IMG/VR virus record: IMGVR_UViG_2537562013_000016
Span: 1 to 9,704 of that record
From: a virus
Taxonomy: Duplodnaviria; Heunggongvirae; Uroviricota; Caudoviricetes
Length of the DNA: 9,704 nt
Direction: 5' to 3' (one strand)
This document shows, piece after piece, positions 2,969-5,307 of this stretch. Every line of letters begins with the position of its first letter. The stretch's first letter is position 1. The notes below the pieces were generated by a model that was not told the DNA's origin, did no database searches, and saw only the letters and a list, made by a program, of their open reading frames with translations. A program made the translations under genes and the position numbers.

Positions 2969-3126
2969 CGTTGATGGACTTTTTGTGCTGTTTATTACTT
3001 TTTATTTTTATTAATTCACTGAAATAAATAAGAAAAAACAATTTGTATTTCACTATAAAAAATTCCAGGTCCTTCAGAACCCTTTGAGACCCTTCCAGTC
3101 CGGATGGATAAAAAACACACAGCCAT

Positions 3127-3144
3127 TGTAAGGTTGCCGGAACA
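3127..3144 (+). promoter_or_regulatory. Delta/Ogr-type site of a P_LL-like late leftward-operon promoter upstream of vis
   Basis: TGT(3127-3129)-N12-ACA(3142-3144); predicts a plus-strand start near 3190, about 395 bp upstream of the predicted P_LE start, matching the P_LL to P_LE spacing I recall for P4. No clean second site found at -18. Confidence 0.45.
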
Positions 3145-3246
3145 AATTCCCCCTGTTGCGTCTGCTGAAAATATTCACAAAATAAAGCGCTACCCGAAGC
3201 CGGACGGACTTATCCGGTGCTGTATGGACATTAACGAGGTAGCCCG

Positions 3247-3513
3247 ATGCAAGCTGTTTTTTCTTCCCCGTCTCCCGCCCCTGTTACGCCACTGATGCCG
3301 CTGCCGGACATCACGCAGGAGCGTTTTTTACGTCTGCCGGAAGTGATGCACCTGTGCGGCCTGTCACGCTCGACCATCTATGAACTCATCCGTAAGGGGG
3401 AATTTCCGCCGCAGGTGAGTCTTGGCGGTAAAAATGTGGCCTGGCTGCACTCTGAAGTCACCGCATGGATGGCCGGGCGCATTGCCGGACGCAAACGGGG
3501 GTACGACGCATGA
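3247..3513 (+). CDS. vis: Vis / AlpA-family excisionase-like transcriptional regulator (88 aa)
   Basis: ORF track 3247..3513; GAGG 8 nt upstream of the ATG; protein contains the AlpA-family helix-turn-helix signature [48 protein letters not shown]. Confidence 0.85.
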
Positions 3514-3548
3514 TGATGCCCGCTCTGCAAAAACTCCCTTTTTCTGGC

Positions 3549-3578
3549 TTGCCTTTTTCCGGCATTTGCGGATATAGT
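3549..3578 (+). promoter_or_regulatory. Strong sigma70 promoter, candidate P_LE (early/immunity promoter)
   Basis: TTGCCT (3549-3554), 17-bp spacer, ATATAG (3572-3577), with TATAGT as an alternative at 18 bp; predicted start near 3585; lies just after the vis stop. Confidence 0.6.
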
Positions 3579-3641
3579 TTTTCCGCTGCCGCAAAATCGG
3601 CAGCCGGGCGTGAGAACCCGAGCAATTCACAGGCGACATAT

Positions 3642-3663
3642 GACGCGCCACGCGTCTTTTTTT
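3642..3663 (+). terminator. Intrinsic terminator-like hairpin about 60-80 nt downstream of the P_LE candidate (leader attenuator or 3-prime end of a small immunity RNA)
   Basis: GACGCG (3642-3647), loop CCA, CGCGTC (3651-3656), then TTTTTTT (3657-3663); plus-strand specific. Confidence 0.5.
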
Positions 3664-3695
3664 GTGTCGCAATCAATGCCACAGAGCGCCAGATT

Positions 3696-4109
3696 ATGGT
3701 GTGGTGTGTGGTCAGTCGTGCAGATGGCATTCCGTGCATCCTGCCCGCGTCCGCTCATTATGCCGCAGAGTCAATGGTAGCTCAGGCGGGGCAGCCTCCG
3801 GGCTGGCCGGTATCCTGTGAAGCCGGTATTCTCACCCCCGTCTGGGCTATCGCCATCGAGCGTGAGAACTCCGGCGATAGCGTTATTTGCTATTCACAGG
3901 AGGCTGCCATCATGGCTACAACCCTTACCCCTTCACACCCTGAATTTGTCTTTGTGTTTGCGGCTGTCCGTCGCGCAGACCGTCATCCCCGTATCTGCAT
4001 GCTTCGCACCGTCGCCGGTGATGAACGCAGCGCCCGCCGTTCCCTTGTCCGTGACTATGTGCTCTCCCTTGCTGCCCGTCTGCCGGTGGTGGAGGTGTCC
4101 CGTGCGTAA
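3696..4109 (+). CDS. kil-region ORF of the immunity/early operon (137 aa from ATG 3696; nested 65-aa ORF from ATG 3912 with a strong ribosome-binding site)
   Basis: Same frame and stop as track ORF 3465..4109, but 3465 and 3510 lie upstream of and within the P_LE promoter and leader, so the first plausible start is ATG 3696. AGGAGG (3898-3903) sits 8 nt upstream of in-frame ATG 3912. Nested in-frame starts fit the kil/eta arrangement I recall for P4; start choice is uncertain. Confidence 0.45.
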
Positions 4110-4389
4110 TAAAAAAGCCCCTCAGACCGTCTCAGCACGTCATGACGCCCGTGAACACCTCAGCATTGAGGCTTACCATAAGCTCAACCGCGCCAGCGCC
4201 GTATCCCGGTTTGTTGGGGGTGATTTGATTCACCGTGAACTCTCCGGCCTGCATCAGCTCTACATTCCGCATATTTTCAGCTACCTGAATGAAGATATTG
4301 ATTTTGTGCTGAATGAGCTGAAAGCCAAAGGCCTGTGCCGCGATTTTCTCGCCCAGCAGAAAGACCGGGGAGACAGGACGCATGTTTGA
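4102..4389 (+). CDS. eps: Epsilon-like protein (P2 prophage derepressor homologue), 95 aa, GTG start
   Basis: Distal 95 codons of track ORF 3817..4389; GGAGG (4091-4095) 6 nt upstream of GTG 4102; no methionine codon anywhere downstream in this frame, so a non-ATG start is required; its stop overlaps the next ATG (4382). Assigned by position and size only. Confidence 0.55.
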
Positions 4390-4837
4390 TTTTCCCCAGC
4401 CCGGTGAGATTTACCGTTCTGCCGGTTTTCCCGATGTGGCCGTGGTCGGCATTCTGGAAGACGGTATTCCGTGGGAAATGCCGTCCCGCTGCCCGGACAT
4501 TGTCTGGAACCCGTACCGCCGTAAATTCAGTATCCTTGTGCGTATCCTCGCTGACGGGCGCACCACAGACATCCCGCTGGGGCGTTTTCTGCGGGAATTT
4601 ACCTGTGACCGTCCTGACCTGTTTAAACGCAGCCCCGTAAACCGGCATGCGGTACTGAAAGAAATGGCCGGAGACCCGGAATTACAGAAATGGCGGGAGA
4701 AATATCTGGATATTTACCCGCAGGACACTGTTCCGGCCAGCCGGGCGGCACCGGTGGCGCGGGAATGGCGGGAAATTCCCCGCACGGAGCCTGACCCAGA
4801 AATCACCCCGGATAACAGTTACCGCAATTATCTGTAA
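4382..4837 (+). CDS. Conserved P4-family hypothetical protein (151 aa; orf151 equivalent)
   Basis: ORF track 4382..4837; translationally coupled to the upstream ORF; position between eps and alpha and a size matching the P4 orf151 I recall. Confidence 0.7.
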   Translation: MFDFPQPGEIYRSAGFPDVAVVGILEDGIPWEMPSRCPDIVWNPYRRKFSILVRILADGRTTDIPLGRFLREFTCDRPDLFKRSPVNRHAVLKEMAGDPELQKWREKYLDIYPQDTVPASRAAPVAREWREIPRTEPDPEITPDNSYRNYL

Positions 4838-4910
4838 TTAAAAAACGACACCCGAAAAATTAAATGTGCGTATTCGCGCAGGGATACGCACGTCTTCAGG
4901 AGACGCAGAT

Positions 4911-4976
4911 ATGCCTTATCAGTTAATGCAACCGGCACGGAATGCAGTCATCTGTCACAGGGAGGAAAGCAAATGA
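4911..4976 (+). CDS. Possible small ORF (21 aa, [21 protein letters not shown]) coupled to the following gene
   Basis: AGGAG (4898-4902) 8 nt upstream of ATG 4911; stop TGA 4974-4976 overlaps ATG 4973 of the next ORF; preceded by hairpins at 4866-4891 and 4891-4905. Below the ORF-track length cutoff. Confidence 0.25.
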
Positions 4977-5293
4977 AACCCCCCTTACCGCCCGTCTTAC
5001 GCGCAGCCCTTTACCGTCGTGCTGTCGCCTGTGCCTGGCTGACCGTGTGCGAACGTCAGCATCGCTACCCGCATCTCACCCTTGAGTCACTGGAGGCGGC
5101 CATCGCCGCTGAGCTGGAGGGCTTTTATCTGCGCCAGCACGGTGAGGAAAAAGGGCGTCAGATAGCCTGTGCCCTGCTGGAAGATTTAATGGAATCCGGC
5201 CCCCTGAAGGCCGCGCCGTCGCTGTCCTTTCTCGGGCTGGTTGTGATGGATGAACTCTGTGCCCGTCACATAAAAGCGCCGGTACTGCACTGA
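4973..5293 (+). CDS. Conserved P4-family hypothetical protein (106 aa; orf106 equivalent) immediately upstream of alpha
   Basis: ORF track 4973..5293; GGAGG (4961-4965) 7 nt upstream of the ATG; ends 15 bp before alpha. Confidence 0.7.
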
Positions 5294-5307
5294 AGGAGAA
5301 CAACACC

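Follow-up and report, generated by a model that had tools for sequence, protein, structure and literature searches.

What is a well-initiated reading frame of only 21 codons doing directly in front of the putative copy-number gene and the primase gene of a P4-type satellite, and why is it preceded by the only appreciable gap in an otherwise tightly packed operon? Both features lie in the 9,704-nucleotide stretch of viral DNA analysed here (the window), whose region 4300-5400 matches the minus strand of the phage P4 record (X51522, NC_001609) at 98.5% identity, window position x corresponding to P4 coordinate 12277-x. An identical copy of the region is present in a P4-type prophage of an E. coli chromosome, and Rfam models of the P4 immunity RNAs (isrK, C4 and c4-a1b1) match the window at 3572-3857; judged by its sequence, the window is a P4-type satellite prophage. 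Its genes run from an Icd-like gene (3510-4109) through epsilon (4102-4389) and orf151 (P4 ORF151; 4382-4837, plus strand, stop codon TAA at 4835-4837) to a gap of 73 nt (4838-4910), the 21-codon ORF (4911-4976, plus strand), a gene for a 106-aa protein (4973-5293, plus strand) and the alpha primase gene (5308-7641). The 106-aa protein is P4 ORF106, a DUF5375 protein, and its gene is the one we take to be cnr, the P4 copy-number gene. Between the Icd-like gene and alpha (3510-5307) all junctions are overlaps or gaps of 14 nt or less except the 73-nt gap, and in elements that have no epsilon and orf151 even the junction that matches this gap is an ATGA-type overlap. The 21-codon ORF is unmarked in the P4 GenBank records and in the RefSeq annotation. 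A preliminary description had read it, together with two hairpins placed upstream of it, as a leader peptide or a translational coupling device controlling the genes just before alpha.

The individual signals that prompted this reading are all present on the plus strand. An 8-bp stem lies within 4866-4891, where GTGCGTAT (4866-4873) pairs with ATACGCAC (4884-4891); CGTCT (4891-4895) is complementary to AGACG (4901-4905), as a second hairpin spanning 4891-4905 would require; AGGAG occupies 4898-4902, 8 nt before the ATG at 4911; and the TGA of the small frame (4974-4976) overlaps the ATG of cnr (4973-4975) in an ATGA at 4973-4976. To ask which of these signals are kept, 21 distinct variants of the region from spacer to ATG were aligned and base pairs were counted for each hairpin. 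The ribosome-binding site CAGGAG (4897-4902) is invariant in 21 of 21 variants, including lineages in which cnr third positions are only ~60% identical, and the frame is open from the shared ATG in at least 14 divergent variants, with indels in multiples of three. On this pattern CAGGAG-N8-ATG is a genuine start site; the claim of strong initiation holds for the site itself and fails for the hairpin proposed as its gate. Hairpin 2 is predicted at -5.6 kcal/mol (z -0.75), a value equalled by 37 of 200 shuffled sequences, and shares C4891 with hairpin 1; its pairs form in 76% of cells across the 21 variants, and four of its five pairs deviate by mismatch alone, uncompensated. With stability at chance level and no conservation as a structure, hairpin 2 was rejected as a gate on the ribosome-binding site and is not a real element.

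Nor does the RNA further downstream offer anything for a leader to regulate. The segment 4906-5005 folds worse than its shuffles (z +1.33) and 4935-5000 is close to them (z +0.28), while cnr has its own ribosome-binding site, GGGAGG (4960-4965), which lies inside the last codons of the 21-codon ORF, 7 nt before the cnr ATG, and is annotated as such in record X05623. An attenuation-type leader peptide of the trpL, pheL or ermCL kind was considered and rejected: there are no alternative or occluding hairpins, the peptide is not conserved, and there is no room for an attenuator because the stop of the ORF overlaps the next start. Coupled gene pairs are recognised by overlapping stop and start codons, which the 21-codon ORF and cnr have, and by a weak or occluded downstream site, which they lack; since GGGAGG sits in unstructured RNA there is nothing for an upstream ribosome to open. 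Termination-reinitiation is thus geometrically possible, and would be inherited from an ancestral gene pair, but it is probably a minor contributor, because cnr has a strong, unstructured site of its own. Of the proposed coupling device, then, the stop-start geometry is real and the dedicated purpose is not borne out. The window itself differs from nearly all other P4-type sequences, P4 included, just beyond this junction: its Cnr begins MKPPLPP where theirs begins MKTPLPP (AAA ACA CCC), and the difference, at 4979-4981, creates a C6 run able to pair with the GGGAGG site.

Transcription signals are equally sparse. A scan of both strands from 3000 to 6000 found no sigma-70 promoter in the A-rich spacer and no antisense promoter in the small ORF or cnr, and a search by eye of spacer, small ORF and cnr turned up poor hexamers only. 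The supplements of a small-gene study of E. coli O157:H7 Sakai held no match to the peptide or its DNA, although prophages in the immune state would not transcribe the region. No Rfam family matches 4838-4976 at E<=1, leaving hairpin 1 without one. Elsewhere in the window RsmY matches below threshold at 666-784, and this weak match is overlapped by a probable terminator, a perfect inverted repeat of 11 bp around a 9-nt loop (AAAGCCATGCA/TGCATGGCTTT, 754-784) just past the end of a psu-like gene on the minus strand (818-1390).

If the ORF is not a leader, comparison with related satellites suggests what it is: in all likelihood the vestige of a small gene still present in sister elements. A scan of Enterobacterales genomes with the Cnr protein gave 56 loci, four of them P4-type and 52 not. 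At 48 of these 52 the cnr gene is preceded by an ORF containing a conserved core, with its stop overlapping the cnr start as ATGA (once GTGA), and the remaining four comprise two coordinate offsets, a fusion (L056) and a partial match (L059). The protein ends in ...SVIYLMTAQLDGVVERCNQ(Q/R)WLTGEGNV and the core of the full-length gene reads DLECLEHLRNVGQ...ERCNQRWL (DLECLEHLRNVGQ...VIYLMTAQLDGVVERCNQRWL). Where epsilon and orf151 are absent, a 75-codon version follows directly after the Icd-like gene; where they are present, a version of 85-87 codons begins at CAGGAG-N8-ATG right after the same A-rich spacer and hairpin 1, as it does in L043, L044, L046, L048, L050, L054 and at least 10 further variants. 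Both forms are joined to cnr by ATGA, and in relatives the C-terminal codons of the full-length gene contain a conserved GGGGAGG. Examples of the full-length gene can be seen at L043 2244-2504, at L011 2277-2504 and at ~50 other loci.

This family is widespread and its core is constrained. It comprises at least 347 protein clusters from Citrobacter, Enterobacter, Klebsiella, Salmonella, Kluyvera and E. coli, all of them labelled hypothetical, with a median dN/dS of 0.22 over the core (1071 pairs) and a fast-evolving N-terminal tail (pN/pS 0.62). No Pfam or NCBIfam model matched the 75-86-aa protein, and an AlphaFold model of the 86-aa form shows two long helices at a mean pLDDT of 59, a confidence too low for a fold search. 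An earlier survey (PMC8628076) recorded that 61% of P4-like elements carry, between epsilon and alpha, a 75-aa family that P4 lacks; the connection of that absence with the unannotated P4 mini-ORF, which the shared position and end signals suggest, is new here. Because the gene is always joined to cnr by the ATGA overlap, its full-length product may work together with Cnr. Of 5426 complete E. coli genomes, 995 contain the P4-type region and only 16 contain at least 80% of the 86-codon-type region.

Set against the 86-codon type, the P4-type locus looks like the product of a deletion. L043 has 257 nt between the shared ATG and that of cnr and the window has 62 nt, a shortfall of 195 nt. Clear homology runs from the orf151 end across hairpin 1, the ribosome-binding site and the ATG as far as the second codon, and resumes over the last ~20 nt, which hold GGGAGG, the spacer and ATGA. 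What is missing in the P4 lineage is the whole conserved core; the start and the last five codons, which double as the cnr ribosome-binding site, now flank 14 codons whose origin is uncertain. Local alignment of codons 3-16 with the full-length gene gives no significant similarity, and the match to its variable N-terminal tail is marginal, being equalled by 15 of 300 shuffles. What supports the remnant reading is therefore position and shared end signals, because homology through the ORF itself is not significant, and the short form is taken as the derived state because the core-containing gene occurs in both architectures and in many genera. The start and stop signals that gave the ORF the look of a leader peptide would thus be inherited from a full-length gene, and with no attenuator-like structure and a peptide under no selection the leader-peptide reading is not supported.

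P4 would not be alone in having lost this gene. A 52-aa in-frame deletion interrupts it in L250 and a 1-nt frameshift in L031, the ORF at this position in L182 stops after 39 codons, and in L056 (a Scandinavium MAG, 2440-2560) the gene is gone and the start site with the first six codons is fused in frame to an intact cnr, reading MADQLT (MPYQLM in P4) in place of the usual Cnr N-terminus MK(P/T)PLP. In L250, L031 and L056 the gene has decayed independently, and the L056 fusion to an intact cnr shows the start site to be capable of driving a conserved gene.

Variation within the P4 type tells whether the shortened frame still matters as a peptide. Among 81 P4-type sequences the 21-codon ORF carries no synonymous and 7 nonsynonymous variants, compared with 16 synonymous and 5 nonsynonymous in cnr of the same sequences (Fisher p=0.00067), and the peptide lacks a synonymous-site pattern, an absence that the preliminary description had itself named as counting against its reading. 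Under neutrality the probability of no synonymous change in seven is 0.13-0.24. When metagenome loci are added, giving 121 sequences, nine sites vary, eight by missense change and one by conversion of the ATG to ATA (L193), and the frame is intact in 120 of 121; neutrality predicts 0.6-0.7 disruptive changes and one is observed. No frameshift or nonsense variant occurs in these 121 sequences, which are closely related and so give little power (P4-type sequences are 95-100% identical). The peptide is not under selection and fits neutral drift, and the intact frame is compatible with weak selection for keeping it open. The gene upstream, orf151, for which no Pfam or NCBIfam assignment was found, is itself under much weaker constraint than cnr, with 25 synonymous and 31 nonsynonymous variants in the 81 P4-type sequences against the 16 and 5 of cnr. 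In two P4-type sequences a diverged orf151 (~80% identity) stands beside an identical intergenic region, which suggests recombination.

How much function this remnant retains can be read in more than one way. At one extreme it would be a dedicated leader or coupling device, with translation gated by hairpin 2 and required for, or tuning, cnr and alpha in the manner of tap-repA or repY-repZ. The strong CAGGAG at optimal spacing, the ATGA overlap with cnr, the frame kept in 120 of 121 P4-type sequences and the direct use of the same site by cnr in L056 all speak for such a device, as does the fact that in this Rho-sensitive operon the ORF cuts the untranslated gap to 73 nt, down from 135; yet the start and stop signals came with the full-length gene, the peptide evolves neutrally and one natural allele (L193) does without its ATG, the cnr GGGAGG lies in RNA less structured than shuffles (z +1.33), hairpin 2 is at chance level with uncompensated mismatches, and no minus-strand antisense promoter was found in the scan of 3000-6000. 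We consider a device of this kind unlikely. At the other extreme the ORF would be a silent fossil, no longer usefully translated, whose signals appear conserved only because the P4-type lineage is young. That lineage has indeed had little time for decay, its members being so nearly identical, both the pattern of substitutions and the number of disruptive variants are as neutrality predicts, and L193 has lost the ATG; against this, CAGGAG is invariant across lineages whose cnr third positions are ~60% identical and starts a conserved gene in them, and the initiation region is unstructured, so that ribosomes are expected to load there whether or not the product is useful. A silent fossil is a real alternative, if one we would bet against.

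We regard it as probable that the locus combines two things, a 21-codon ORF that is a gene remnant, its peptide having no function of its own, and a first hairpin that is a conserved plus-strand RNA element and presumably a boundary; the second hairpin is not real. Ribosomes would probably continue to initiate at 4911 and, 21 codons later, terminate on the cnr ATG. Translation along the operon would then be almost unbroken, with some reinitiation at cnr in addition. The left operon is subject to Rho-dependent termination, with the terminator timm at X51522 8365-8209 (PMC3177188), or 3912-4068 in the window. A residual benefit of translating the stump could therefore lie in the shorter stretch of untranslated RNA that it leaves.

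The first hairpin is the part of the locus that does stand out, although it is situated upstream of the ribosome-binding site and does not include it. Its core stem (4866-4875/4882-4891) encloses the loop GCGCAG (4876-4881), and further pairs are possible at 4865.4892 and 4864-4893; on the plus-strand RNA the 8-bp stem first described extends through G.U and C-G pairs to 10-12 bp. The plus strand is predicted to fold at -17.5 kcal/mol (z -4.45), a stability reached by none of 200 shuffles, and the minus-strand RNA much more weakly, at -10.7 kcal/mol (z -2.2). As a bare DNA repeat it is unremarkable, for the window holds nine perfect 8-bp inverted repeats, and its significance comes instead from its conservation in relatives. 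The same sequence was marked as long ago as the 1984 record of the P4 essential region (X02534), in which a 'region of imperfect dyad symmetry' at 3656-3690 corresponds to window 4862-4896; that record notes the symmetry only, without function, conservation or a link to the small ORF, and its interpretation as a putative selected plus-strand RNA element is new here.

Of the two hairpins in the preliminary description, only this one withstands comparison with relatives. Hairpin 1 is 90-93% identical to the window in lineages where cnr third positions are 58-67% identical and the last 100 codons of orf151 68-75% identical, for which the binomial probability is 5e-5 to 7e-4 at 28/30 identical positions and 3e-4 to 4e-3 at 27/30. 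The A-rich spacer beside it (4838-4863) is 73-85% identical to the window in most of the 86-aa-type relatives compared, 58% in L054, and is variable among P4-type sequences, in which the density of variable sites is 0.03 per nt for hairpin 1, 0.065 for cnr and 0.11 for the 21-codon ORF. Coding constraint does not account for this, because the reading frame through the hairpin differs in L056. The pairs are kept in 98% of cells across the 21 variants, the hairpin folds in five of the six lineages tested, and outside L054 five of six substitution events preserve a standard pair on the plus strand, by C-to-U changes opposite G at two positions and by alternation of U.G, C-G and U-A at two loop-proximal pairs; the same substitutions would give A.C mismatches on the minus strand. 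Strict covariation is weak, with a single pair altered on both sides, and the pairing counts do not exceed shuffle controls because the sequence is so conserved. In L054 the stem is broken and the loop sequence GCGCAGGG is retained, which could reflect selection on hairpin 1 at the level of sequence rather than structure.

Could the hairpin act as DNA, or on the other strand, as an operator for a dimeric DNA-binding protein or as the intrinsic terminator of an antisense transcript? The perfect 8-bp half-sites, the T-rich run AUUUAAUUUUU that follows the stem on the minus strand and the survival of the loop in L054 despite its degraded stem would suit such an element. The changes within the stem (C-to-T opposite G, UG/CG/UA) keep pairing in plus-strand RNA only, however; the minus-strand stem that the T-rich tail follows is the weak one, no promoter-like site was found on the minus strand between 3000 and 6000, and the window has no second copy of the site besides a degenerate one inside orf151. 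We therefore give this explanation little credence. On the plus strand the hairpin is not an intrinsic terminator either: the stem is followed by GUCUUCAGGAG with no U-tract, and a terminator scan found nothing here. Pairing of hairpin 1 with the P4 cI immunity RNA (3770-3857), an idea that arose from a slight resemblance of the hairpin-1 loop to the complement of the cI loop, was rejected, since by duplex energy 4845-4890 ranks far behind many other sites in the window.

Two further observations concern the hairpin sequence itself. The degenerate copy inside orf151 (4538-4563, 328 nt upstream) repeats the arms of hairpin 1 imperfectly as GTGCGTAT-N10-GGGCGCAC, and its 5' arm could pair with the 3' arm of hairpin 1; it is confined to P4-type sequences, and ~0.04-0.07 such copies are expected by chance per window. 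Several E. coli genomes (H41-H43) carry an IS66-family element within the 5' arm of hairpin 1, for example at L376 2447-2510 in E. coli 2012C-4606, where homology to the window starts at 4871, and the insertion splits cnr and alpha from the rest of the operon.

As a boundary in plus-strand RNA, hairpin 1 would separate the epsilon-orf151 segment from the cnr-alpha segment of the transcript as an intercistronic stability or processing element. It could block 3'-to-5' exonucleases on behalf of promoter-proximal epsilon-orf151 RNA, protect the 5' end of cnr-alpha RNA, or both, and it would leave little naked RNA on which Rho might load. P4 is reported to make 1.3-kb RNAs from the PLE promoter besides full-length ones. 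Judging by a promoter-like site at 3549-3578 and by the start of isrK at 3585, +1 lies near 3585 in the window; as a lead for further work, this would put the end of a 1.3-kb RNA near 4885, within hairpin 1. A more ambitious version holds that hairpin 1, at its fixed distance from CAGGAG, is a regulatory RNA operator for a P4 or host protein or an RNase, setting the ratio of epsilon and orf151 to cnr and alpha and hence the copy number, with the stump kept translated to shield cnr-alpha from Rho polarity; we think it improbable that all of this is so.

Seen as a remnant beside a boundary, the locus has consequences beyond its size. P4, the reference element, would be the degenerate case, with only a stump of a gene that is retained by most P4-like satellites, and a well-initiated, unannotated small ORF of a classic model satellite would be explained without a new mechanism. 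A deletion can evidently leave behind a fully equipped mini-ORF that mimics a leader peptide, which is a caution for scans that search for small ORFs and leader peptides. Hairpin 1, more conserved than the genes that flank it and located in the sole untranslated gap of the replication operon, is the only part that would merit an experiment.

Both elements are best filed under kinds already known, as a gene remnant that keeps its expression signals and an adjoining intercistronic stem-loop. The closest counterpart of the ORF is the 75-86-aa family, whose position it occupies (behind orf151 and hairpin 1, or behind the Icd-like gene where epsilon-orf151 is lacking); it shares the CAGGAG-N8-ATG start with the 86-aa form and the ATGA overlap with the family as a whole, and departs from it in having no conserved core, a middle of 14 codons without significant similarity and neutral evolution. 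The trpE-trpD and trpB-trpA pairs of E. coli are translationally coupled through overlapping stop and start codons, and the ATGA overlap and the placing of the downstream ribosome-binding site inside the upstream coding sequence are alike here; the downstream site of P4, however, is strong and unstructured and the upstream partner is a 21-codon remnant; any dependence of cnr on it is putative. In plasmids R1 and ColIb-P9, the leader peptides of tap-repA and repY-repZ bring replication genes under the control of antisense RNA, and there too the stop of a short ORF (~20-30 codons) lies at the start of a gene within an operon for replication control, but P4 has neither a structure sequestering the downstream site nor a signal for an antisense promoter or RNA, and its short ORF appears to have arisen recently by deletion and is no conserved leader. 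The malE-malF REP element, the puf operon hairpins and papBA processing exemplify intercistronic stem-loops that set the stability of mRNA segments. Hairpin 1 differs from them in being unique rather than one of a repeated family and in having no Rfam match; it would resemble them as a stable, conserved stem-loop with no U-tract in the sole untranslated gap of a long polycistronic operon, flanked by segments that plausibly need different levels of expression.
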